This document shows, one piece after another, positions 356-49,673 of a stretch of 64,000 bases of DNA. Under the pieces are notes generated by a model that was given only the letters and a program-made list of their open reading frames with translations, searched no databases and had not been told where the DNA came from. A program made the translations under genes and the position numbers. Source of the stretch: Candidatus Moraniibacteriota bacterium (GTDB lineage Bacteria > Patescibacteriota > Minisyncoccia > Moranbacterales > UBA1568). Where the stretch lies: the NCBI GenBank assembly GCA_016699875.1, contig CP064989.1:10631-74630 (forward strand). The letters are read 5' to 3'. The stretch's first letter is position 1. Each line of letters starts with the position of its first letter.

Positions 356-3300
356 TCACGGCGTCCTCGGGTGAGAGAGCGCGGTGTGAAGATAGGGTGC
401 GGCCGGCCGAGGGAAGGGTTCTTTATCGATTGGCGGGATACCCTCATCAAGCACAAAGAGGGAATTTTGGACCAGGGGATGCGATTCGAAGAGACGGCTC
501 AAGAGTCGGTTGGAGAGGCAATTGCCGATCGCGGCAAGAATCATTCCTTGGTGGTGACTCATAAACATGTTGACCGGCGACCCGTGTCGTGAACGGTGGA
601 AGTCGATTGCTTCAATATAGCCATAGACGCCCCGGCCGCCATAGGTGGCGTAGGCGGCAAGATTCTTGAGTGTGGCGCGAGGGAAAGAGGATATCGACAT
701 GGCGATTCCATAAGCGGAGACGACGGAACGATCGTCAGCGGAAGGCGAGAGGGAGAGTGCGGGAAGTCCGAATGGTTTGTAGCGGAAGTTTCCGCCGCGG
801 TCGAGTTCGGCGTATCCGGATTCCGAGAGTCCCCATGCGGGGATATTTTTTTTCTTTGCGGAGTAGCGATTCATGAGGATGGCCGTTTGTATACTTCGGC
901 CAACCAGTGAATCTTTGTGTTCTTCAAGGAAAAGCGCTGGCATGAGGTATTCGAAGAGCGTGCCTGTCCAGGAAATGAGCGCGGGACCGGTACGGAGCGG
1001 TAAGACAGTGCGGTTCAATTTGTTCCATCCGCGGAAAGAGAGAGTGCCTTCGGCGAGTGCGAGCAGATTGGCGATTCGCGCCTCAGAGGCAAGCGTCTGG
1101 TAAAATCGATTTTCGAGGCGTTTTGTGGGCACGTGAAATCCGATAGAGATAAGAGAACGTTTGTTGGAGCGAAGAAAATCGAAACGCATTTCGGAAATGA
1201 TACTATCGAGTTTTCGTATGAGGTCAGAGTGCGAATTGTCTGTGTGTCCAGCAGTATTCGAAGAGACATTGGTTTGTTTGTTTGAGAGATGATATTGATA
1301 TTCGGAGATCGTGTCGCGCAGTTGTTCTCGAAGGAGTGCGAGTGTGTCGCGCACTTCTTCCGGGAGAGATTTTGGAATGGCGATATCGATCAGCGAAGTC
1401 TCGATGATTCGGAGTTGTTCAAATAAGCTCGATTCTTCATGGTTGAGCGGCAGGGTGTCAATCCGCGAGATGACTGTTTCCCAAATATCCGAGAACGATT
1501 GCATATCGAGCGTCTTCGGGATACGATCCCGGATAAGCTGCGCCATTGAATGAAGCCCTTTCTCGGTACGGTGAACAGACAACGTGGTTGTCTCATGCGC
1601 GAGCCATTGCCTTGTGACGATGAGTGCGGCACAGAGATTGCCGCTGTCAACGCTCGAGATAAAGAGTGGCGGTGCGGGGAGCGCTGTCTTCGTATGATAC
1701 CAGTTGTAAAAATGTCCCTGATAGCGCTCCATGCGTTCCAGTGAAGTGCATGTGCGCTCCAGTGAAGCATATGCTTTCTTTGTGGAGATAAATCCAAGCC
1801 GGTGCGCCACCAAAACCGATGTGAGGAAGAATCCTATATTGGTGATAGAGGTATACTCGGCCGTCTTCGGTGTAGGGCTGATTCGTATATAATCCGGCGG
1901 GAGGAAATGCGTTTCAGGTCCGACGGTTTGTTCAAAGAAACTCCAAGTTTCGAGCGCGTCTCGGCGGAGACCGTCTTCTTCCTGGCGCGAGAAATCATGC
2001 GCTTGCTTGTATGGTTTATTGAGTAGGAAGACGAGAATGGGAATACCGGTCCAGAGTACGAGCAGGAGTGCAAAGAGCGGATGTATGTTTCCCTCCGTAT
2101 GGAAATTCAACAGCACGATAAGCAGTGTGATACAGGGAAAGAGAAGTGGTATGCGCCCGGCTGGGTTTTCGAAATGCGCCGACGGCACCCACTCAAGCAT
2201 GTTCTTCTTGCTGATGAATCGACGGGAAATTGCCGTGATGATGGCATGCGTTGTATCAAGAGCGGCATAGGGGAGAGTGATGCACTCGAATGCTGCTTGC
2301 CGGCAAAGTCGGAAGCTCCGTGTTGCCGTACGCTTGAGTCGATACCCGATATGTTTCCATTTTCCGGTGAGCAGTTGATAACTCCAGCGGACCCAGTCGA
2401 TACACATATCGAGCAAGAAGAGATCGAGGAGAAATATGCTCCAGGCAAAAAGTAACAGGTGAGGATTGCCGACAATCCATGAGAGCACAGTGATGAGGAA
2501 TACGGCCGGGCGGAAGAGGCTTTGCAGGAGATTATCGGCAATTTTGAATCGATGAACAAATGCGAGTGTATTCTTGCGGACTCTGCCGGATTCGTCTCGC
2601 ACGGTCGGTGTGAGCCAATCGAGTATTTGCCAGTCGCCACGCGTCCAGCGGTGATTTCTTGCCAGCATGGCGCGGAGAGATTTTGGAAATTCATCAAAAA
2701 CATCAATATCCGCGGCATAGGCGGTTCGCGCGAGCGAACCTTCGAGCAGATCATGGCTCAGTATTTGGTCGGTTGGAAGCGCTCCGTCAAGCGCGGAGAG
2801 AAAAGCGTCTATATGAAAGGATCCCTTGCCGGCATAGCTTCCCTCAAGGAATATGTCCTGGTATATCTCCGGAAAAGTGGTGGAGTACGCGCTGAAGCGT
2901 TTTTCATCGAAGAAGATGCGAGGAAGGCGAAATCGGTGTCGATTCTTGAACCACTGTTTGACATGCGGCTGGATGAAAGTATAGCCGCGTATCAGCTCGC
3001 CGTTCGTATTAAGAATTGGCTTTTGGAGCGGATGCGAATGAATACCGAGCATGTCTTTGATGAAGTCCCGAGTAATAAAAGCGTCTTCATCAAGGGTGAT
3101 GATAAATTCCGCATGTGGAAGTCTCTTGGCGGATATGAAGAATGGCGATGAAGTTGCTTGCCCGCGAAGCGCTCTGGCGAAGTCAAGAAGCTTGCCGCGC
3201 TTGCGTTCCCATCCCATCCAGTGTCCCTGTCGGTTGGACCATGCGCGAGACCGAATAACGAAAGCAAACCGGTCTGTCTCGCCATAACGCTGATTGAGTT

Positions 3301-5521
3301 CGCGAAAGGCGTCTTTTGTTTCTTGGAGAAGCGAGGCGTCCTCCGGCATCGTCTCGCTTGCGGCATCGGTGTAGTCGAGCAAAAGATAGTATGAAATCGC
3401 ACTGGTTGTATTGCTGAGATAGGCGGTTTCGAGTTTGCCAAGGAGTGCGGAAAGGGTGTGTCGGTCTTTGAGAAGTGCGGGGATAACGAAGACAGCCGAG
3501 GCGGATTCGGGAATTCGCCGCCGAAAATTGAGACGAGGGAGGAATGTCGGCGGGACAACTCCGACAAACAGGCTGTCTATGAGATGTTTCGACGCCTTGT
3601 AGAGAATGGGGAAGGCGATGATCATGAGAAATCGGTAGTGGAGATAAAACACGGCAAAGACGCTCGCCGTGAAAAGAGAGAGTGAGAATATGAATCCGAA
3701 ATAGGCAACACGTAGTGCGGGAAGTTTTCGACGATCGTGATACCAATGCCACCAGGACATGTGCGTGCTGCCGGTCAATCGCTTGAGGAGCGCTGGAAGT
3801 CCGTCATCGACAAGATAAAACCCGACATGGCGCTGCGGGTCGCTGCTGTCTTTGTGTTCCTCGGCGAGGGCGAGGGCGGCTCGCGTGAATGTTTCTTCGG
3901 AAAGTCGGAGCGTCTTTGCTATCGAAGCCGCTTTCTTTCGGTACATCTCTTGGGAAAGTGAGGTCATCTGTTCGTAGATATCGGCAGGGTCTCGAACAAG
4001 GAGTCGGTGAAGGGCATTGGTTTTCCGGAGGAGCGCATTCCACTCGAATTCTCCCAGGAGGGGGAGCGAACGAAGCAAAACGCGAACCCTAGTGGCAAGT
4101 TCGCGTAAACTTTTTGCTTCGGCAGTCCTTGAAAACGATTTTACCGGTCGCTCCTCGTTTTTCTTGGAAGATGTCTCGCGGAATCGAGAGAGGGGATACA
4201 CTTCCTTGGAACGGCATTCTTCAAACGCATCGGCGAAAGCGTCGGCACAGAGAGGCCCGCGCTTTCTCCGAAGCGTATCGAGTAGCGTGTGATAGCGGGA
4301 GGAATTTGGCCCGAATTTATTGAAGTGTTTTCGCGCCAGTGCGCGAGATTTTTCGACATCGGACAGTCGAATGGCGACGGTTGAAAGCTTATCAAGCGAA
4401 AGAAGTCGCAGGATCGGTGAGATCGCTTCTGTCTCGGCGAGTGAGAGTGAAAAAGCGGCGGACTCTTGCCAGTCATTGAGCGTGCTGGCCAGTGTCTCTT
4501 CCGAGAAGCGGAAGGCTGTTTTTTCAACATACCCATTGAGGAGATATGTTGCGGCTATAAGGTTGGCAGGTGCCGTTTCATCGAAAGATACTTTGGAAAG
4601 CGTTGCCTCGAGCGAGCGGAACTCCGCCGCGATAGCCGCATGCTTCTTGAGAAGCCACCGCGTTGCGAGCAGGAGAGTGTCGGGAGGAATTGAAAGCGAA
4701 GACGTACCGGTATCTTCTCGAGATCGATTAAGCCAGGAAGTGTGCTTTTGGTAGGGGGTGTAGAAAGAAGAGAAACGCCGGTGGATTTCCCGCACTTTCC
4801 GCGAGAGATGTCTCTCGATGACACGCTGCCCCCGTCGAAGCGAGAGACTGGAAATAGCGGTTTCCATGTGTTCTAACCACTTTTCAGTAGGGATTTCCGG
4901 ATGATAGTGTTGCCTAAAAAGGCGGGAAAGTAACATAGAGACGAAGAAATACCAGGGGAATACTAAGCAGAGTATAGCAGGAAAGAAGGAAAAATGGCTA
5001 TACTGCGGTCTCGGATGCGAGCCCCTTTCAAAAGCAGGGGATATGGTGTACAGTATGGAACGTTTGATGGGGTTCGGAGAGTTTAAAACGCGAGTTGAGA
5101 GGATATCCGTTTGCATTATCATATGGAGCTGTCGGCATCTCATAAAAAACCTTTTGTAAAGGTATGCGTGCATCGGGATTGTTGCGAGAAGGGATCGGAT
5201 CGTCTCTATGCGAAGCTCTCGCATGAAGTCTCGTCTGATGAGGCGGATATTCAGAAAACCGAGGACTGCTTTCGATTTTGCAAAAAAGGGCCGAATATCG
5301 CCGTTGATGGCAATGTCTTGCACCATATGAATGAGCGAAATGTGGTATCGCGCGTTCGATCTGAGATTCGGCGTCCTTCTTTCAAAAAGGACGGCATTGG
5401 CACGCGCCCCATAGATGAACTCGACGATGTGCTTGACAATATCGGTGTATAGTCTGTTGTTTGTTGTCCGGAGGATGTTCTTGGTATTGTTTTCCATTGA
5501 AACGTGATATACTAATCGCAA
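356..5521 (-). CDS. Cyclic beta-1,2-glucan synthase-like giant membrane protein (GT84-like glycosyltransferase + GH94-like domain)
   Basis: Single 1721-aa ORF. 'ITLDEDAF' (DXD-like) and 'NHRWTRGDWQ' (QxxRW-like) motifs sit between hydrophobic segments. Downstream are 'GHFYNWYHT', 'EYLMPALFLEE' and 'SESGY', which resemble the GH94 / cyclic glucan synthase (NdvB/Cgs) catalytic region. The start is uncertain; an alternative in-frame ATG lies 24 nt downstream. Confidence 0.6.
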   Translation of the reverse strand: MRLVYHVSMENNTKNILRTTNNRLYTDIVKHIVEFIYGARANAVLFERRTPNLRSNARYHISLIHMVQDIAINGDIRPFFAKSKAVLGFLNIRLIRRDFMRELRIETIRSLLATIPMHAYLYKRFFMRCRQLHMIMQTDILSTRVLNSPNPIKRSILYTISPAFERGSHPRPQYSHFSFFPAILCLVFPWYFFVSMLLSRLFRQHYHPEIPTEKWLEHMETAISSLSLRRGQRVIERHLSRKVREIHRRFSSFYTPYQKHTSWLNRSREDTGTSSLSIPPDTLLLATRWLLKKHAAIAAEFRSLEATLSKVSFDETAPANLIAATYLLNGYVEKTAFRFSEETLASTLNDWQESAAFSLSLAETEAISPILRLLSLDKLSTVAIRLSDVEKSRALARKHFNKFGPNSSRYHTLLDTLRRKRGPLCADAFADAFEECRSKEVYPLSRFRETSSKKNEERPVKSFSRTAEAKSLRELATRVRVLLRSLPLLGEFEWNALLRKTNALHRLLVRDPADIYEQMTSLSQEMYRKKAASIAKTLRLSEETFTRAALALAEEHKDSSDPQRHVGFYLVDDGLPALLKRLTGSTHMSWWHWYHDRRKLPALRVAYFGFIFSLSLFTASVFAVFYLHYRFLMIIAFPILYKASKHLIDSLFVGVVPPTFLPRLNFRRRIPESASAVFVIPALLKDRHTLSALLGKLETAYLSNTTSAISYYLLLDYTDAASETMPEDASLLQETKDAFRELNQRYGETDRFAFVIRSRAWSNRQGHWMGWERKRGKLLDFARALRGQATSSPFFISAKRLPHAEFIITLDEDAFITRDFIKDMLGIHSHPLQKPILNTNGELIRGYTFIQPHVKQWFKNRHRFRLPRIFFDEKRFSAYSTTFPEIYQDIFLEGSYAGKGSFHIDAFLSALDGALPTDQILSHDLLEGSLARTAYAADIDVFDEFPKSLRAMLARNHRWTRGDWQILDWLTPTVRDESGRVRKNTLAFVHRFKIADNLLQSLFRPAVFLITVLSWIVGNPHLLLFAWSIFLLDLFLLDMCIDWVRWSYQLLTGKWKHIGYRLKRTATRSFRLCRQAAFECITLPYAALDTTHAIITAISRRFISKKNMLEWVPSAHFENPAGRIPLLFPCITLLIVLLNFHTEGNIHPLFALLLVLWTGIPILVFLLNKPYKQAHDFSRQEEDGLRRDALETWSFFEQTVGPETHFLPPDYIRISPTPKTAEYTSITNIGFFLTSVLVAHRLGFISTKKAYASLERTCTSLERMERYQGHFYNWYHTKTALPAPPLFISSVDSGNLCAALIVTRQWLAHETTTLSVHRTEKGLHSMAQLIRDRIPKTLDMQSFSDIWETVISRIDTLPLNHEESSLFEQLRIIETSLIDIAIPKSLPEEVRDTLALLREQLRDTISEYQYHLSNKQTNVSSNTAGHTDNSHSDLIRKLDSIISEMRFDFLRSNKRSLISIGFHVPTKRLENRFYQTLASEARIANLLALAEGTLSFRGWNKLNRTVLPLRTGPALISWTGTLFEYLMPALFLEEHKDSLVGRSIQTAILMNRYSAKKKNIPAWGLSESGYAELDRGGNFRYKPFGLPALSLSPSADDRSVVSAYGIAMSISSFPRATLKNLAAYATYGGRGVYGYIEAIDFHRSRHGSPVNMFMSHHQGMILAAIGNCLSNRLLSRLFESHPLVQNSLFVLDEGIPPIDKEPFPRPAAPYLHTALSHPRTP

Positions 5522-5573: not shown

Positions 5574-6032
5574 ATGGCGGAAGAACCGGTGACGAATGAC
5601 GAATTGTCCGAAGAGGAGGATGTGCCTATGAAGAGTCTTGGGGATCGTGCGCGAGAGTTTCGAAACAGTCTTCAGAAAAGGTTTGCTGAGGGGAGCGCGT
5701 TGACGCTTGTTTTGTTGTTTGTGCTCGGATTGCTGTTTGGTGCGGCTGCGAAGGCCGTTGCATCGAGAAGTATTTTAATCGGATATTGGGACTATACTAT
5801 TACCCCCAAAGAACGGGCCGCTGTGAATTTGAATGCTCTCCAAGAAGAGCTGGCCGCTCGTCAGAAGGAGGCGGCGAAGCCGCAAAATGCGGAAGATGCG
5901 ACCGCATCGCAGCCGGAGGATTCCGGAGGCGAATCAGTCTCAGGCCAAAGCTCATCGGAAGAAGAGTTGCCGCCATTGCCACCAACGCCAGAACCGCCAG
6001 CTTCTCCATCTCCGGAGGCGGAAAAAGAATAA
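5574..6032 (+). CDS. Hypothetical single-pass membrane protein with an acidic N-terminus and a Pro/Ser/Glu-rich C-terminus
   Basis: 152-aa ORF with RBS. Contains one hydrophobic helix (LTLVLLFVLGLLFGAAA). The C-terminus is low complexity (PPLPPTPEPPASPSPEAEKE). Confidence 0.5.
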   Translation: MAEEPVTNDELSEEEDVPMKSLGDRAREFRNSLQKRFAEGSALTLVLLFVLGLLFGAAAKAVASRSILIGYWDYTITPKERAAVNLNALQEELAARQKEAAKPQNAEDATASQPEDSGGESVSGQSSSEEELPPLPPTPEPPASPSPEAEKE

Positions 6033-6073
6033 GATACGCCTCTTTTTTCAGTTTTCATTAATATCGGATACTA

Positions 6074-7218
6074 TGGATTTTCTGAATAAAAAAGAATCGA
6101 ATGAGAAGGATGATGATCTCGAGTTGTCGTTTCTTGGTGATACCTCAGAGGATGCCGGCGATATGCCGGAGGAAACAGATAAAAATCGCGAACTTACCAA
6201 GAAGGTAAAGAATCTTACGGCGCTTTTGGTAATTGTCGGCGGGCTCTTTGTCGGGAGTCTCTATGTGGATTTCTCGCAATTGTTCACGAAATCCGGATTT
6301 TCTTCGCGGGCACTGAAAACAACCGATGTGGTCACGGCAGCGGGAAAAACCTGGGTTGCCTATGATCAGCCGATTGTGCATGTAACGGTGCTTTCGGAAG
6401 AATCGTGCAAAGAGTGCCAGACCGATGAGGCGGTTGTCTGGCTTCGCCGGATTTTGCCAACCGTATCGGTTGAAATACTCGATGTTTCAAAGGATTCGAA
6501 GGCGAAGGACATGGCAAAAGCCGCCAATGTGACGGCGATACCCGCTTTTATTTTCTCCAAAGAAGTGGCGGAAGTCCCGGTATACGAGCAGGCGCAACAG
6601 CTTTTCACGCCACTCAACGACAAGGACGGCCGATATATGCTCGATACGGCACAGGTTGGTATTCCGGTGGGGAAGTATCTCGAATTGCCTGAGGTGAACG
6701 ATGCGGACATTCAGTCGGGCTCGAAGGATGCGCCGGTTCGTGTGGTGGAGTTTACCGATTTCCAGTGCCCCTACTGCAAAGCGTTCCACGCAACACTCCA
6801 AGATACGCTCAAAGAGTATGGAGACAAAGTACTCTATGTCTACAAGAACTACCCGCTTCCGATTCACGCGCAAGCGGAGAATGCCGCGCTTGCTGGCGAG
6901 TGTGCCAATGAGCAGGGAAAGTTCGTGGAGTATGCGGACAATCTTTTTAACAAACAAGACGAGTGGGGCAAGACAACCGGCGTGCAAAAATTCAAAGACT
7001 ATGCGCGGACACTCAAACTTGATACGACTCAGTTCAACACTTGCTTGGATGACAAGAAGTATCAGGACCAAGTGACTGCCAGTCTTGATGAGGGGAAGAA
7101 ATTTGGCATCAGCGGCACGCCGGGAACCTTTGTGAATGGCACCTTCTTGAATGGCGCCGTTCCTCAAAGCGATCTCAAAGCCGCTATCGACGCGGAGATT
7201 GCCAGTGCTTCGAAGTAG
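6074..7218 (+). CDS. Membrane-anchored thiol:disulfide oxidoreductase with tandem thioredoxin-fold (DsbA-like) domains
   Basis: Start trimmed to 'MDFLNKK'. The upstream Arg-rich extension is an out-of-frame shadow of the 5574 gene. Has an N-terminal TM helix. The first domain carries a CKEC motif and the second a canonical DsbA 'FQCPYCKAF' motif. Confidence 0.7.
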
Positions 7219-43648: not shown

Positions 43649-44937
43649 GCTCGTGTTGTATTGTGAACAAACATGCTCAGAGCTTTTTCAAGAGAAAGAA
43701 CGGTTGTTTCCTCATCTGTCCGCCGCTTCATTTCCGCGCCGCCATGCTCAAGCGATCGCTTCGAAACTACCAACCGATACGGCATGCCCAGCAAGTCGCT
43801 GTCACCGAATTTCTCACCAGCGCTTACATCGCGATCATCGTACAGTATATCGATGCCATGGGCAGTAAGTTTTTCATACCACTCGCCTGCTTCTTTGTTC
43901 GCTCCAAGCGAAATAAGGTGCACCCGAAACGGCGCCACACTCTCCGGCCAGACAATTCCTTTCTCATCGGAGAGCAACTCAACAATCGTTCCCAAGAGTC
44001 GGGTTGGCCCAATGCCATAACTTCCCATTACAACCGGCTTTGAGATACCGTTCTCATCGATATACAACAGGCCCAATGCTTCAGAAAATCGAGTGCCAAG
44101 TTTAAAGATATTTCCTACTTCAATGGATTTTACCTGCTCAAGATCATCCTTCTGAAGACCGAGATCGCGCAGCACTTCTTCCGTATATACCTCTTCATTC
44201 ACCGCTATACCTTTTGCTTTCGACAAATAAATAGTATCTTCACCGGCATCGCTTACAGCCTGGAACTCATGGCTGTATTTGGAAAACACTCCGCCGCTCG
44301 CAAATGTCTTGAATGTTAAACTGCCAATGCCGACTCGTGCGAATATTTTCGCATACGATTCAGCGCATCGACCATAGAATATATCGAGGTCCTCCTCTGT
44401 TGCACTAAAAGAATACAGGTCCTTCATTAAGAACTCTCGTCCGCGCATGATGCCGCTCTTTGCTCGTTCCTCGTTCCGAAATTTTGTCTGAATCTGATAC
44501 GGATACGCCGGGAGATCGCGATAGGACGAAATATGCTGTCTCATAATCGCCGTGATCGCTTCTTCGTGGGTAAAGCCAAGTCCAAGTTCCGATCCACTCC
44601 TCAGCGTTGTCTTAAACCAATTGTCCACGATGGCATCATCCCATCGTTGTGTCTTCTGCCATAATTCCGGATTTTGAAGTGCTGTCAGAAGCACTTCGCG
44701 ACCGCCGATCATCTCTATCTCATCTCGGATAATCTGCTCGATATTTCGAAGAGTCCGCAAACCAAGTGGCAGAAACGAATATACGCCTGCCATTTCTTTG
44801 TGAACAAACCCGGCACGAATCAAAAGTTGCGCATTACGACTCACTTCGTCCGCTGGGTTCTCTTTGCGGGTCTTCGTAAAAAGTTCAGAGTGTCTCATAG
44901 GTGTAGAAAACGCTTTCATATCCCCTGTTCTTCCCAA
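43645..44937 (-). CDS. proS: Proline--tRNA ligase, short bacterial-type form without the INS editing domain
   Basis: 'QLLIRAGFVHKEMAGVYSFLPLG' and 'QIQTKFRNEERAKSGIMRGREFLMKDLYSF' (class II motif 2), plus a C-terminal anticodon-binding domain. Confidence 0.8.
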   Translation of the reverse strand: MGRTGDMKAFSTPMRHSELFTKTRKENPADEVSRNAQLLIRAGFVHKEMAGVYSFLPLGLRTLRNIEQIIRDEIEMIGGREVLLTALQNPELWQKTQRWDDAIVDNWFKTTLRSGSELGLGFTHEEAITAIMRQHISSYRDLPAYPYQIQTKFRNEERAKSGIMRGREFLMKDLYSFSATEEDLDIFYGRCAESYAKIFARVGIGSLTFKTFASGGVFSKYSHEFQAVSDAGEDTIYLSKAKGIAVNEEVYTEEVLRDLGLQKDDLEQVKSIEVGNIFKLGTRFSEALGLLYIDENGISKPVVMGSYGIGPTRLLGTIVELLSDEKGIVWPESVAPFRVHLISLGANKEAGEWYEKLTAHGIDILYDDRDVSAGEKFGDSDLLGMPYRLVVSKRSLEHGGAEMKRRTDEETTVLSLEKALSMFVHNTTRA

Positions 44938-45019
44938 GAGTACACTAATTATGGTACACTGGCAATCTCCTCTGCTTTTGATTTTTCATGCTCGAATTAT
45001 TTACAACGCCAAAAAAATT

Positions 45020-45934
45020 ATGGCTATCATTTCCGTACAGCATCTCTCAAAAACATACGATTCCGGACTTCACGCACTTCGAGATGTCTCGATTGATATC
45101 CGTTCTGGAGAAATCTTTGCCCTCCTCGGACCAAATGGCGCCGGGAAAACCACGCTTATCGGTATCATCACCGGACTCGTCACTAAAACATCAGGCAGCG
45201 TATTAGTCGATGGCAAAGATATCGAAAAAGACTATCGCTACACACGGAGTCTCATCGGATTCGTCCCGCAAGAAATCTCTCTCGATATTTTCCTCTCCGT
45301 CGAGCAAATTCTCAAAAACCAACGCGGCTTCTATGGGAAACCGGCAAACCCAGCACTCCTCGAGCGCATCATGCGCGATCTCTCGCTCTGGGACAAGCGC
45401 CACGCGGAAGTCCGCTCGCTTTCCGGTGGTATGAAGCGACGAGTACTTATTGCCAAAGCACTTACGAATGAGCCAAAAATTCTCTTTCTTGATGAGCCGA
45501 CCGCTGGCGTCGATGTCGATCTTCGCAAAGATATGTGGGAGCAAGTGCAAAAGCTCCGCGCATCCGGCACCACCATCATTCTCACGACACACTATATCGA
45601 AGAAGCTGAACTCCTCGCCGATCGAATTGGCGTCATCAACGAAGGCAAGCTCATATTGGTCGAAGAAAAAGAAACACTCATGAAAAAAATGGGTGAAAAG
45701 ACGCTTATTGTCCAGCTTAAAAAACCACTGGAAGCTATTCCGCCCACAATTGTCAGCCCTCGACTCTCACTTTCCGAGGACAGACGATCCCTCTCATTGC
45801 AGTATTCCTCCGAAGAGCCGACTGTCTTCCCTTTTCTGCAAGCACTCGAAAAACACAGTATTTCCGCATCCGATATAACCACAACCGAAACTTCACTCGA
45901 AGAAATATTCGTCACACTCATTGAAAAAAAATAA
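45020..45934 (+). CDS. ABC transporter ATP-binding protein (ABC-2 exporter type)
   Basis: 'GPNGAGKTT', 'LSGGMKRRVLIAKAL', 'LFLDEPTAGVD'. Start trimmed to 'MAIISVQH'. Confidence 0.85.
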   Translation: MAIISVQHLSKTYDSGLHALRDVSIDIRSGEIFALLGPNGAGKTTLIGIITGLVTKTSGSVLVDGKDIEKDYRYTRSLIGFVPQEISLDIFLSVEQILKNQRGFYGKPANPALLERIMRDLSLWDKRHAEVRSLSGGMKRRVLIAKALTNEPKILFLDEPTAGVDVDLRKDMWEQVQKLRASGTTIILTTHYIEEAELLADRIGVINEGKLILVEEKETLMKKMGEKTLIVQLKKPLEAIPPTIVSPRLSLSEDRRSLSLQYSSEEPTVFPFLQALEKHSISASDITTTETSLEEIFVTLIEKK

Positions 45935-45947
45935 CATCCATATTATG

Positions 45948-46706
45948 AATTGGATCGGATTCAAAACTATCTTCATGAAAGAAGTTGGGAGATCGAAAGA
46001 TGTTCTCGTCCAAGCGTTTCTCTCACCAGTCATCACGACGCTTCTCTATTTTCTCGTCTTCGGCAGCGCGATCGGCGGCAATATCAAACCGATTCACGGC
46101 GTGCCCTACGATCACTTCATCGTACCGGGACTCATCATGATGGCACTTCTCATGAACTCTCTCATGGCGGCATCGAGTGGCATCTATTTCCCTCGCTTCA
46201 TTGGCACCATGAGCGATCTTCTGACTTCCCCTCTCTCCTATCTCGAGATCGTGATGGGATTTGCACTTTCCGCAGCCGCCCGCGCACTCGCCATTGGCAT
46301 CACCATATTCGTCATCTCCTGGATTATTACCGGCATCACGGTCGCTCATGTTGTTTTCACTCTCATCTTCGGACTCCTCACCGCGCTCACGTTTGCCCTA
46401 CTCGGACTCGTCCTTGGCATTTGGGCGAAGGACTTCGAACAGCTCAGCATGGTCCCGACACTCCTCCTCACCCCGCTCACTTTTTTGGGCGGCATCTTCT
46501 ATTCGGCAAACATGCTTCCGCCGATGTGGCAAAACGTCACAAAGGCGAATCCGGTTTTCTACATGATTGACGGCTTGCGATGGGGCTTCTTCGGCGTCTC
46601 CGACACCGATCCGATCATAAGCCTCGTCATCACCGGCGCCGTCCTCACGCTCTCCATACTCATCCTTCGCCGAATGTTCCAAACCGGCTATCGACTGAAA
46701 TCGTAA
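45948..46706 (+). CDS. ABC-2 family transporter permease
   Basis: Six TM helices. Directly follows the ATPase. Confidence 0.75.
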   Translation, partial: NWIGFKTIFMKEVGRSKDVLVQAFLSPVITTLLYFLVFGSAIGGNIKPIHGVPYDHFIVPGLIMMALLMNSLMAASSGIYFPRFIGTMSDLLTSPLSYLEIVMGFALSAAARALAIGITIFVISWIITGITVAHVVFTLIFGLLTALTFALLGLVLGIWAKDFEQLSMVPTLLLTPLTFLGGIFYSANMLPPMWQNVTKANPVFYMIDGLRWGFFGVSDTDPIISLVITGAVLTLSILILRRMFQTGYRLKS

Positions 46707-46756
46707 ACTTGAGAGAGATATCTACCCCTCATTCCTGGAAAGATTTCAATCTTTCG

Positions 46757-46870
46757 GAAGGGGGTTCTATTTCACCAATTCGTGTTCGCTGCTGGCGAAG
46801 ACGCGGTTAGTAATGAGTGCGTCGCCAACGAGGGCGCCATCCACGATAGTATAATGATAGCAGAGACAAA
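46757..46870 (-). pseudogene. Remnant 3' end of a MacB/LolD-like ATPase gene (encodes '...LSVDGALVGDALITNRVFASSEHELVK*')
   Basis: About 73-85 bp with roughly 93% identity to the 3' end of the intact ATPase gene at 47524-47600. The differences are mostly synonymous. No upstream body remains. Confidence 0.6.
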
Positions 46871-46892
46871 AACCGATCCTCATCAGAGGATT

Positions 46893-47453
46893 TTAATAGC
46901 AGACAGCAATAATAAAGCTGATTGGTAAAGACCACAAGGTATACTTGAAGGTGTTCAGCAACACCGAGTACCATTTACCGGTCAAGCTGTTTTTAATCCA
47001 TAAAAAAATTAACCCGTTAACGGGTTTCACGCCCACTTGACCAACTCCAATGTTCTTAATAGTTGGATATGTAATGCCAGTTATTTCCTGAATAGGTGCT
47101 AAGCAGGCAATAGCAACAAATGTTCCAGCAAGTCCAATCATTACAATAAGCGATAACATTTTTAGAGAACTAAACGCCAATATCGCGTAAAATGTTGTAT
47201 AAAACCCAAACGCAACTCCTAAAAGAGAAAGAAAAGTTAAAATAAATAATGAAATAAGCTCAACTACTACAAAGGATCTCCGTTTATCGAGTCGCCAGTT
47301 TGGCGTATAGAGTGACACAATAGATTGATGCCATTCGAGCCTTTTAATAATGAGGATTTTAAAATATATGATTAAATCAAAGATTAAAATTAATGAAAGT
47401 ATATACAAAAGAACTTCAATGTGGATTGTAAAGATCCGTAATGATAATGACAT
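46893..47453 (-). CDS. Very AT-rich (about 28% GC) hypothetical four-TM membrane protein, probably foreign
   Basis: 186-aa ORF with four hydrophobic segments. Compositional outlier. Sits between the two homologous ATPase 3' ends. Confidence 0.45.
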   Translation of the reverse strand: MSLSLRIFTIHIEVLLYILSLILIFDLIIYFKILIIKRLEWHQSIVSLYTPNWRLDKRRSFVVVELISLFILTFLSLLGVAFGFYTTFYAILAFSSLKMLSLIVMIGLAGTFVAIACLAPIQEITGITYPTIKNIGVGQVGVKPVNGLIFLWIKNSLTGKWYSVLLNTFKYTLWSLPISFIIAVCY

Positions 47454-47523
47454 AACCGTGATATTTTTTAATGCCTAGTTTCAAACTATCAAGATGAAGT
47501 TCCAAAATATCTATCCGCGTCAT

Positions 47524-48366
47524 TCACTTCACCAATTCGTGTTCGCTGCTGGCGAAGACGCGGTTGGTAATGGGCGCGTCGCCAACGAGGGCGCCGTCCA
47601 CAAGGGAGAGCATGCGCTTCCCATGGCGAGCAGTAGTCGATTCGTGCGTCACCAGCACAATCGTCTTTCCTTCGTCGTTCAGCTTCTGCAAAATCGCCAT
47701 AACGGCAAGTCCGGACTTCGAATCAAGATTGCCCGTCGGCTCATCGGCAAAAATAATATCCGGATTATTCACGAGCGCACGGGCAATCGCAACTCGCTGC
47801 ATTTCCCCGCCGGAAAGCTGATTGGTAAAGTAATCGGCACGATGCTCCATTCCAACCGAATGCAGCGCCGCCATAACCCGCTCGCGGTGCGCTGCTTGCC
47901 CCATACCCGCCCAGGCAGAACCCAGGGAGGCAACCATGCTCTTAAGTCCGCCCGACTTCCATACGCCGCGAAAGGTTCGCCGATGAATACCGTATACATC
48001 GTAGAGCATCGGAAGCTCGACATTCTCAAAGACGCTCGTTCGCGGAAGAAGATTGAACGATTGAAAGACGAATCCGAGGCTTTTATTGCGTATCTCGGCA
48101 AGTCGGTCCGTCAGAAGTCGGCTCGTATCCTCGCCAGAGAGAAGGTACTGTCCCGATGTCGGCCGATCCAAGAGTCCCAGCAGATGCATTAGCGTGGACT
48201 TTCCCGATCCGGACGGTCCCATGAGCGCCACAAATTCGCCTCGATCAATCGAAAACGTCGCGCCACGAAGTGCGATGGTCTGCACATTCTCCTCGGATGT
48301 ATATGTTTTCGAAAGATCGCGACAAACAATAAGCGCTCCCATACGTACGCAGTTCAGAAATTTCAC
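47524..48366 (-). CDS. MacB/LolD-family ABC ATP-binding protein (with an insertion of about 30 aa before the signature motif)
   Basis: 'GPSGSGKSTLMHLL', 'FVFQSFNLLP', 'LSGGEMQRVAIARAL', 'IFADEPTGNLD'. The start overlaps the upstream HlyD stop by 4 nt. Confidence 0.8.
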   Translation of the reverse strand: MKFLNCVRMGALIVCRDLSKTYTSEENVQTIALRGATFSIDRGEFVALMGPSGSGKSTLMHLLGLLDRPTSGQYLLSGEDTSRLLTDRLAEIRNKSLGFVFQSFNLLPRTSVFENVELPMLYDVYGIHRRTFRGVWKSGGLKSMVASLGSAWAGMGQAAHRERVMAALHSVGMEHRADYFTNQLSGGEMQRVAIARALVNNPDIIFADEPTGNLDSKSGLAVMAILQKLNDEGKTIVLVTHESTTARHGKRMLSLVDGALVGDAPITNRVFASSEHELVK

Positions 48367-49673
48367 GAAGCATTCGACACCACCTTCTCCCCTTCGGAGA
48401 GTCCCGAACGAATCTCGATCTGACCATCATCACCTCGGAGACCCACGCTTACTTCACGATCTTTGACCGAACCGTCCGGCGTCAACACTCTGGCAAAGTA
48501 TGCGCCATTTTCTTCGCGCAAGAGCCTCGAGGGAATTTCAAGAACATTTTTTTGTTCATCGATATGAATGTCGGAATCGCCACTCATTCCCGGCTTGAGA
48601 CGCGGGTCAACCGATGTAAGACGGAGTTTCACAATATAGTACACAACATCCTGAATCACTGTCGAATCCGGTTTGATTTCAATCACCTCAGCGGGGAGTA
48701 TATCGTTCGAGTCGAAAGCATCGAAAGATATGCCGGCAGACTGTCCAAGCTTTACCTTGGTAATATCCGATTCCGGAACCTTCGCTTCAAGCAAGAGATC
48801 ATACGAAAGCAATTTCCCGAAAGCGCCGGATATTGCCGTCCCGACAACCTCGCCCTTTGAAAAATTCACTTTGGTAACCAGTCCATTGACTGGCGCGACG
48901 ATATCCGCCTTCCTGGCATTGGCCTGCGCGATCGCGAGTGCCGCATCTGCCGATCGTATGGCGCTCGTCTCAATAGTCGTTTGTGCCGAAGACTCGAGCG
49001 TCTCGGTTCTTTCTCGAGCCGCATCCCATGAGTTTTTCGCATATCGAATCGCCGTATCACGATTCTTCTGCGCCGTGTCACGCGCTTCATTTGCCGCCTT
49101 CCGCGCATTGGTTGCGGCGGTGAATGTTAGCTTTGCACTCTTTGCTGTCGAGCTCGATGCACCACTCTCCGATACGACCTGATTGTAATACGACTCCGCA
49201 TCGTCTTCGTAGTCCTTGGCGCTCTCATAAGCGGCATCTGCCGCGCTCACCTTTTGATTCTCCGCCTCTTGCACGGTATCATAGTACGTTTTCAAATCCT
49301 TTTCACTTGCCTGCGCCTCACGAAGCGCATGATCGCTCATGCTCGCATCAGCCCGCGCCCGTTCCAAAGCCGCACTCGCCCGATCCACTTCTCCTTCCAG
49401 AGTTGCCGATTCAAGAGAGGCAATCGCCTCACCGGCTGCTACCTTTTGCCCCTCGGAAACCGCGATCGACTTGATACGTCCGGCTATTTCAAAATTCAAA
49501 TCGATTTCATCCGACGCAACCAGTGAAACGCTTGCCGAGACTGTTTCCGTCACATCGCCTCTCACCACCGATGCGGTTTCGTAATTCGGTGTCGCCGAAG
49601 ATTTCTTCCAATACCAAAACCCGCCTCCGAGAGCTATGATGACAATGATAACAAGCCACTGTTTCAACTTCAT
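48363..49673 (-). CDS. HlyD-family periplasmic adaptor / membrane fusion protein (MacA-like)
   Basis: N-terminal TM helix, biotin-lipoyl-like 'VVRGDVTETVSASVSLVASDEIDLNFEIAGRIKSI', a long Ala/Glu-rich coiled coil, and a C-terminal beta-barrel. Confidence 0.8.
   Translation of the reverse strand: MKLKQWLVIIVIIALGGGFWYWKKSSATPNYETASVVRGDVTETVSASVSLVASDEIDLNFEIAGRIKSIAVSEGQKVAAGEAIASLESATLEGEVDRASAALERARADASMSDHALREAQASEKDLKTYYDTVQEAENQKVSAADAAYESAKDYEDDAESYYNQVVSESGASSSTAKSAKLTFTAATNARKAANEARDTAQKNRDTAIRYAKNSWDAARERTETLESSAQTTIETSAIRSADAALAIAQANARKADIVAPVNGLVTKVNFSKGEVVGTAISGAFGKLLSYDLLLEAKVPESDITKVKLGQSAGISFDAFDSNDILPAEVIEIKPDSTVIQDVVYYIVKLRLTSVDPRLKPGMSGDSDIHIDEQKNVLEIPSRLLREENGAYFARVLTPDGSVKDREVSVGLRGDDGQIEIRSGLSEGEKVVSNAS

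Follow-up and report, generated by a model that had tools for sequence, protein, structure and literature searches.

An ATPase gene with a second, orphaned 3' end and a one-gene insert of foreign origin in a Candidatus Moraniibacteriota chromosome

The adaptor-ATPase locus and its repeated gene end

The window analyzed here is a 64-kb stretch of one Candidatus Moraniibacteriota chromosome contig, from a bacterium of the candidate phyla radiation (CPR), and all positions below follow its numbering unless another contig is named. It contains an operon for an adaptor protein and an ATP-binding cassette (ABC) ATPase, and the 3' end of the ATPase gene is present there twice: once on the intact gene and once as an orphaned tail, with a small AT-rich membrane-protein gene between the two copies. 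A repeat search and alignment bear out this arrangement, which an earlier note on the same DNA had described; some of its figures and part of its explanation did not hold. The features of the locus are as follows.

45921 to 46706, plus strand: ABC-2 type permease gene, convergent with the ATPase gene and its conserved right-hand neighbor (Pfam ABC2_membrane, 1.4e-34); its own ATPase lies at 44864 to 45934
46707 to 46766, no strand assigned: spacer of about 60 nt with an imperfect hairpin (46725 to 46763), from the orphaned tail to the stop of the ABC-2 permease gene (relatives, fold scan)
46767 to 46844, minus strand: orphaned ATPase tail, that is, the distal repeat copy (46771 to 46844) plus its own third base of Lys and TAG (repeat search, alignment)
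46845 to 46859, minus strand: junction filler of 15 nt, from the foreign block to the distal repeat (local alignment)
46860 to 47514, minus strand: foreign block, a one-gene unit homologous to about 9760 to 10412 of contig L001, described below (BLAST and local alignment)
46866 to 46891, minus strand: terminator-like hairpin ATCCTC-TGAT-GAGGAT (46891 to 46876) with a T-run, directly 3' of the open reading frame (ORF) (scan)
46893 to 47453, minus strand: AT-rich ORF encoding a small polytopic membrane protein (186 aa) whose family is uncharacterized (ORF call, homologues)
47463 to 47492, minus strand: promoter-like site TTGATA-18-AAAAAT, within the foreign block and close upstream of the ORF (consensus scan only)
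47515 to 47523, minus strand: junction filler of 9 nt (ATGACGCGG on the minus strand), from the ATPase stop to the start of L001 homology (local alignment)
47528 to 47601, minus strand: proximal repeat copy, the functional ATPase 3' end, completed by G and TGA at 47524 to 47527 (repeat search, alignment)
47524 to 48342, minus strand: intact gene for a MacB/LolD-type ABC ATPase, 272 aa from the ATG at 48342 (Pfam ABC_tran, 2.8e-33)
48363 to 49673, minus strand: gene that opens the operon and encodes the adaptor, a membrane fusion protein of MacA/HlyD type (Pfam HlyD_D23/HlyD_3; NCBIfam RND_mfp)

The adaptor matches RND_mfp at 1.2e-41, exceeding the family cut-off, and is syntenic in all relatives. 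The ATPase, for which a GTG at 48366 overlapping the adaptor stop is an alternative start, has the motifs required of a MacB/LolD-type (type VII) ABC ATPase: Walker A (GPSGSGKST), signature (LSGGEMQ), Walker B (IIFADEPT), and H-loop (VTHE). Its top NCBIfam matches are the nucleotide-binding domains (NBDs) of MacB, DarD, LolD, and FtsE, each scoring under its equivalog cut-off. These profiles cover the protein in two stretches separated by an insert of about 27 aa (residues ~115 to 141), and the extra length (266 to 274 versus ~240 aa) is kept in all homologues that are at least 62% identical.

The direct repeat measures 74 nt (46771 to 46844 and 47528 to 47601), or 78 nt with the Lys-stop, and its copies are identical at 70 of 74 positions and lie 757 nt apart by repeat search and MAFFT alignment; the 73 bp and 767 bp first given for these values were in error. 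No third copy is present in the 45.5- to 49-kb region. On the minus strand the repeat encodes VDGALVGDA(P/L)ITNRVFASSEHELV and the first two bases of Lys, which is the end of the ATPase gene; the residues ahead of the distal VDG read YTI, not LS as initially noted. Past the repeat, the proximal copy is completed as AAG TGA and the distal copy as AAA TAG, so that three of four bases differ right after 38 identical ones. The orphaned tail has neither a start codon nor any ATPase sequence upstream of it. The four mismatches (46809, 46816, 46818, and 46839) are all transitions, with the A/T state belonging to the distal copy each time, and they comprise three synonymous changes and one Pro-to-Leu replacement; the differences are thus mostly synonymous, as had been pointed out, but four sites carry no statistical weight. 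The final 38 nt of the ATPase coding sequence (AACCGCGTCTTCGCCAGCAGCGAACACGAATTGGTGAA; 47528 to 47565 and 46771 to 46808) include a small TTCGC-N5-GCGAA hairpin. This 38-nt core is matched at 38 of 38 positions in relative L088 (2991 to 3028) and at 37 of 38 in relative L098, though the genes overall are only ~79% identical.

The insert of about 680 nt reads as a self-contained one-gene unit, with a promoter-like site, the 186-aa membrane-protein ORF, and a terminator-like hairpin. In BLAST, 594 nt of it match L001 DNA at 86.5% identity; local alignment stretches the match to ~46860 to 47514, ending 9 nt from the ATPase stop and 15 nt from the distal repeat. The junction 30-mers are GAATTGGTGAAGTGAATGACGCGGATAGAT and GCTATCATTATACTATCGTGGATGGCGCC, and the proximal junction contains a GTGAA-GTGAA microrepeat. 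The ORF has a GC content of 34.0%; the value of roughly 28% put forward at first is reached only in its 5' 200 nt. It does lie in the lowest-GC 500-nt stretch of the 64 kb (32.6% against a mean of 48.0%, standard deviation 4.2), and the description of the gene as the most extreme compositional outlier therefore stands. On the far side of the orphaned tail, the spacer at 46707 to 46766 occurs as a single copy in the window and is absent from relatives, whose spacers are 0 to 12 nt; it may have arrived with the insert or separately. Its candidacy as a repeated element was rejected because of that single copy, and its fold is unexceptional (z, −1.6).

Empty sites and a variable junction in relatives

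The representative genomes of GTDB contained nothing closer than 56% identity to the ATPase; relatives were taken from a large protein collection combined with contig look-ups; L098 came from a metagenome DNA scan. The protein collection yielded ATPase orthologues at 97, 89, 86, 83, and 78% identity, all of 270 to 274 aa. Their contigs are syntenic with the window, with genes for MurC, MurB, RecJ, an RNase H-like protein, the adaptor, the ATPase, the convergent ABC-2 permease and its ATPase, prolyl-tRNA synthetase, a UMP kinase-like protein, and a glycosyltransferase. The ABC-2 permease gene itself is syntenic in L087 to L091, L095, and L098.

In four lineages, the ATPase stop lies 0 to 12 nt from the convergent ABC-2 permease stop, as seen in L087/L088 (89%), L089 to L091 (86%), and L098 (79% at the nucleotide level); these loci are all free of the AT-rich gene, a second ATPase, any tail remnant, and any FtsX/MacB_PCD gene. 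More widely, the AT-rich gene, a second ATPase, and an FtsX permease are all absent from seven syntenic loci whose ATPases are 78 to 97% identical to that of the window. Because the convergent stops of the relatives are 0 to 12 nt apart with no other genes between them, the event is an insertion and not a replacement: these contigs show that in the ancestral locus the ATPase gene and the convergent ABC-2 permease gene met stop to stop and that the AT-rich gene and the second tail are additions. The earlier note had said that conservation of the AT-rich gene at normal composition in related genomes would speak for an ancestral gene; the relatives do not have it, and the insertion stands.

The permease expected of a MacB-type system has a separate history. 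Homologues that are at most 56% identical always have a 405- to 490-aa FtsX/MacB_PCD permease gene directly 3' of the ATPase. No such partner, beside or fused to the ATPase, was found at the locus, in the seven relatives, or in the 64-kb window, and tblastn with four verified MacB_PCD+FtsX permeases gave no match in the window or the relatives. The adaptor and ATPase are thus a conserved pair in this Moranbacteria clade without an adjacent permease gene. Since no clade member has the permease at this locus and the distant homologues do, the permease was already gone from the clade before the insertion took place.

Several relatives differ at the junction itself. The closest strain, L085 (Logan SRR28385526; ATPase 97% identical), matches the window ATPase gene at 96.8% over the first 741 nt but at only 24 of 39 positions over the final 39 nt. 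In its gene, the terminal ~28 nt have been exchanged for a divergent allele, giving a tail (IFAVDERELVK, then stop) like that of more distant relatives. At the same ATPase/ABC-2 junction it carries a different insert of 375 nt (within 3246 to 3660) with a 61-aa ORF (3399 to 3584), a clear intrinsic terminator, and no flanking repeat. In L095 (CP064994.1, a closed Candidatus Moraniibacteriota genome), a 545-nt gap of 37% GC (4820 to 5364) lies 3' of the ATPase gene, and 33 nt past the ATPase stop stands an exact 11-mer of the window-type tail (CACGAATTGGT) followed by TGA, which was equaled in 1 of 1,000 shuffles; this 11-mer may be another, more ancient orphaned tail. L095 has its adaptor gene split into ORFs of 134 and 310 aa. 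In the lineage of L092 to L094, DnaJ and not the ABC-2 pair follows the ATPase, and L093 and L094 differ from L092, in contigs that are otherwise near-identical, by a 45-nt insertion in an inverted-repeat (terminator-like) region ~70 to 115 nt past the ATPase stop. The Lys-stop ends of the gene vary as well, being AAG TAG in L088 and L089, AAA TAA in L098, and AAG TGA in L095. Because another insert occupies the ATPase/ABC-2 junction in the closest strain, this junction is a local hot spot, a recurrent entry point for accessory DNA in this clade.

The membrane-protein gene and its source

Among 5.8 billion proteins, the product of the AT-rich ORF resembles just three: itself, annotated on a 1.09-Mb Candidatus Moraniibacteriota contig, P0002 (79% identical), and P0003 (45% identical). 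A full HMMER profile search of 1.84 billion representatives brought the family to eight proteins by adding six remote members of 144 to 191 aa. The contigs of these remote homologues are mostly ~1 kb and uninformative; one has a resolvase and a SHOCT neighbor. Between the window and L001, 181 codons of the gene align without indels, with a dN/dS of 0.22 and a dS of 0.38, which places it under purifying selection and shows it to be a real gene, at least elsewhere. The window copy has an indel of 1 nt near codon 181 by which the last hydrophobic helix is changed and cut short, so that the protein ends in SFIIAVCY where the homologues end in SFTVLPVIIKIFFR; the full-length form is kept in P0003 and the six remote homologues. 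Hydropathy and an AlphaFold2 model (pLDDT 76) agree on three long transmembrane helices plus C-terminal helices, the last of them shortened, in a helical membrane bundle with a small beta-hairpin. The four transmembrane segments counted initially are therefore an approximation.

The protein has no recognizable function. It has no match among Pfam, NCBIfam, PADLOC, or PHROG families, and its fold has none in the PDB or BFVD. We considered whether the ORF might be a degenerate FtsX permease and ruled this out, as no FtsX C-terminal or MacB periplasmic core domain is matched in Pfam or NCBIfam at an E value of ≤0.1, and its homologues adjoin a PKD protein and not an ABC system. The resemblance of the locus to a MacAB-type tripartite exporter operon, in which a co-oriented adaptor and MacB/LolD-type NBD would here have the AT-rich gene in the permease position, therefore ends at gene order: the AT-rich protein has no FtsX/MacB_PCD similarity, the clade has no permease gene at this place, and the NBD has a clade-specific insert of ~27 aa. 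The suggestion of an immunity or toxin role, made because small AT-rich ORFs beside exporters are often of this kind, fared no better. There is no family match to bacteriocin immunity, toxin, or defense proteins, and the gene is not consistently linked to toxins or exporters: an exporter adjoins it in this window alone, and elsewhere the homologous gene comes after the gene for a 908-aa PKD-domain protein.

That other setting is L001, a 56-kb contig binned as Candidatus Competibacter. P0002 is encoded there by the last gene of a three-gene module of 40% GC, which comprises a 60-aa protein, the 908-aa PKD-domain protein, and the membrane protein. The module is surrounded by genes for ParA, toxin-antitoxin proteins, ArdC, an insertion sequence (IS), and a 211-aa tyrosine recombinase, the last of these ~190 nt from the homologous membrane-protein gene; the ArdC-like protein and the tyrosine recombinase have their top matches in proteobacterial plasmids. 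When L001 (6602 to 10450) is compared with L004 (248 to 4022), the module is 76% identical and the flanking backbone 92 to 96%, and L001 carries an additional IS at 5710 to 6601. The module, with its 60-aa, 908-aa PKD, and ~190-aa membrane proteins, thus behaves as a variable cassette in a conserved, plasmid-like backbone. A search for the module in viruses returned no match.

Elsewhere, the membrane protein is a partner of a large PKD-domain surface protein. The window contains none of the other L001 module genes and, by tblastn, no recombinase related to those of L001 or L102. Given the missing partners and the shortened last helix, the window copy is most likely a passenger left stranded. 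Transcription may still reach it, whether initiated at its own promoter-like site or reading through from the adaptor and ATPase genes, the latter being conceivable because the scan found no terminator-like site from the ATPase stop to the ORF start.

The foreign origin of the gene, which the earlier note had proposed from composition, is supported by its absence from every syntenic relative, its outlying GC content, and the mobile-element context of its only close homologue, on a contig of another phylum. A transfer across phyla would be neither recent nor necessarily direct, since the case rests on the binning of one contig and an identity of 86.5% (dS, 0.38). A literature search on an association between Moranbacteria and Competibacter found nothing relevant.

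Origin and meaning of the structure

The structure is an ordinary scar of horizontal gene transfer and not the wreck of a second transporter. As for the route, the explanation we prefer, held with about as much confidence as doubt, is that incoming DNA with its own allele of the ATPase tail would have recombined through that homology, orphaning the other tail and leaving a scar of homology-facilitated illegitimate recombination (HFIR). The donor was probably a different Moranbacterium, one that already had the unit immediately 3' of an orthologous ATPase gene. A linear fragment would have entered by a homologous crossover in the ATPase gene (or in the ABC-2 gene, from the other side) and an illegitimate join at its other end; alternatively, a circularized fragment could have integrated by a single crossover. 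One tail would then remain on the gene, and the other would be displaced downstream as an orphan.

Several observations fit this explanation. The ATPase reading frame is fully preserved, and the 78-nt orphaned end sits on the far side of the insert; a 3' fragment stranded downstream of an intact gene, with foreign DNA in between, is the mark of HFIR or C-terminal displacement. The occurrence of both Lys-stop forms as natural gene ends in relatives supports the existence of two alleles, and we estimate at 2 to 4% the chance that an insert would supply a purine and a stop after a target duplication ending in GTGAA. Because both copies look like complete, independent gene ends, two alleles are favored, and therefore models based on tail homology or on site-specific recombination are favored over duplication in situ. 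Recombination also seems to recur at this gene end, as suggested by the swapped tail and insert of L085 and by the gap and possible tail remnant of L095. The proposal in the earlier note that homologous ends mediated recombination is to this extent plausible.

HFIR with orphaned 3' regions has been proposed for type VI secretion system (T6SS) and rhs loci (PMC5361080). As in the C-terminal displacement described for rhs, contact-dependent inhibition (CDI), and T6SS loci (PMC5361080), a conserved gene here provides the homology for anchoring, a new 3' end and a small downstream gene come in with the foreign DNA, the old 3' end persists downstream as an orphan, and neighboring strains have different inserts at that junction. 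Unlike in those systems, the tails here are nearly identical and encode the same housekeeping C terminus, so that no toxin tip has been diversified; a single displacement step is seen, no immunity function has been demonstrated for the small gene, and the organism belongs to the CPR. The structure works like the scar of a one-step C-terminal displacement.

Other observations weigh against this explanation. A donor genome, with the AT-rich gene adjoining the ATPase gene, was not found among the 5.8 billion and 1.84 billion protein sets, and the AT-rich gene is seen in one CPR genome only. No recombination breakpoint appears within the body of the ATPase gene in comparison with L085, and each tail differs from the L085 tail at 3 of the first 36 positions, so that resident and imported tails cannot be assigned. 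All four mismatches, or five with the Lys codon, are G/C-to-A/T changes in the distal copy, as neutral decay of an in situ duplicate would give, and an identical 38-nt core between differences is a pattern also expected for att sites.

Integrative elements that target gene 3' ends, together with their cis-mobilizable deletion derivatives of the ICESt1/ICESt3 type, provide the basis for one alternative, since the derivatives have attL and attR flanks without recombination genes. The insert would in that case be the remnant of a site-specific integrative element, or a minimal one like a cis-mobilizable element (CIME), with the ATPase tail as attP/attB and a crossover in the 38-nt core giving hybrid attL and attR sites; the recombinase would act in trans or would have been lost through internal deletion. 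The likeness is considerable: direct repeats of tens of bases, the length of att sites, flank foreign DNA and rebuild the 3' end of the target gene (74 nt, 95% identical, ATPase ORF intact) with no recombinase inside, the core is identical with differences on both sides and is conserved in L088 and L098 as given above, a tyrosine recombinase gene lies near the homologous gene in L001, and the junction varies between strains. Unlike such derivatives, however, the insert carries just one gene unit of 680 nt, which has a promoter and a terminator to itself and lacks any conserved element backbone, and there is no sign of a recombinase or of the same repeat around other cargo. The insert encodes no recombinase, tblastn with the L001 tyrosine integrase, a DDE transposase, and the L102 serine resolvase found none in the 64-kb window, and no tail-like sequence occurs in L001 to L004. 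A 26-mer of the core has 0 matches in viral contigs and 1 in metagenome contigs, which is an ordinary empty-site ATPase end, and the different insert of L085 has no flanking repeat. We therefore regard a site-specific element as unlikely. Were it correct, excision would join ...GAATTGGTGAA to ATAGAACCCCC and form a circular junction ...ACTATC/GTGGA...GTGAA/GTGAATGACG.

In a second alternative, which we also think improbable, foreign DNA would have been caught at a break or template switch with a 74-nt target duplication in situ, and the orphaned copy would then have decayed. The G/C-to-A/T direction of every difference in the noncoding distal copy is what mutation bias without selection predicts, short fillers stand at both junctions with the GTGAA-GTGAA microrepeat at the proximal one, and a donor arrangement is not known. 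On the other side, the insert would have to provide a Lys base and an immediate stop by chance, at the low estimate given above, and the distal copy needs a Lys-stop of its own with three of four bases different beside 38 identical ones. Moreover, the copies have diverged from each other by 5.4%, against 3.2% from strain L085, which lacks the insert, and a target duplication of 74 nt far exceeds any transposase product. Insertions of transposons and IS are marked by terminal inverted repeats, a transposase, and a short target duplication (2 to 15 bp). Such an insertion was rejected for this locus because the insert has no inverted repeats at its ends and no transposase, and the 74-nt duplication is too long.

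A more ambitious proposal, which we consider distinctly improbable, is that the 38-nt core is a genuine attachment site for mini-cassettes without recombinases and that the 86.5%-identical cassette in a Candidatus Competibacter-binned element from a similar habitat records DNA passed directly between a CPR episymbiont and the host on which it lives. If this were true, it would offer a sequence-based handle on the identity of that host.

It is very improbable that the structure is an assembly chimera, in which strain variants and an unrelated AT-rich fragment were joined through the repeated tail during metagenome assembly. The source is a metagenome-assembled genome, strain-level variation occurs at exactly this junction (L085), and the exact ATPase protein, from either start, is on record in no other assembly. 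Nevertheless, four mismatches and different stop codons separate the two copies of the repeat. The insert shows 13.5% divergence from the one close relative it has and comes up to 9 nt from the gene end, and the ORF is intact, has a dN/dS of 0.22, and is annotated in the public 1.09-Mb contig.

Least credible of all is the explanation of the earlier note, that a cassette took the place of a tandem ATPase paralogue or ATPase-permease unit, most of which was lost by deletion, leaving the distal tail as a relic, for although an FtsX/MacB_PCD gene always follows the ATPase in the distant homologues and the distal tail resembles a genuine gene end, the seven syntenic loci have no second ATPase or permease, the spacers in four lineages (including those with 79 to 89% ATPases) are 0 to 12 nt, the 64-kb window has no FtsX-like sequence, and nothing ATPase-like lies upstream of the distal tail. 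The bases that follow the ATPase stop (MTRIDILELHLD...) were also examined as the start of a lost FtsX gene and rejected, as they align to the L001 intergenic region and the relatives never had the gene.

The type of event described here is already known, and our understanding of exporters or mobile elements is unchanged by it. What is unusual is the CPR host and a very rare, uncharacterized family shared with a proteobacterial mobile element. In practical terms, it would be a mistake to interpret the locus as a second transporter in decay or as an immunity cassette. It documents cleanly how a reduced CPR genome gained a gene: relatives show empty sites, the foreign source can be traced, and both junctions can be seen. 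It also shows that accessory DNA has repeatedly entered genomes of this Moranbacteria clade through the near-zero spacer between two convergent transporter genes. The most interesting lead is the link that this rare membrane-protein family draws between a CPR chromosome and a proteobacterial mobile element.

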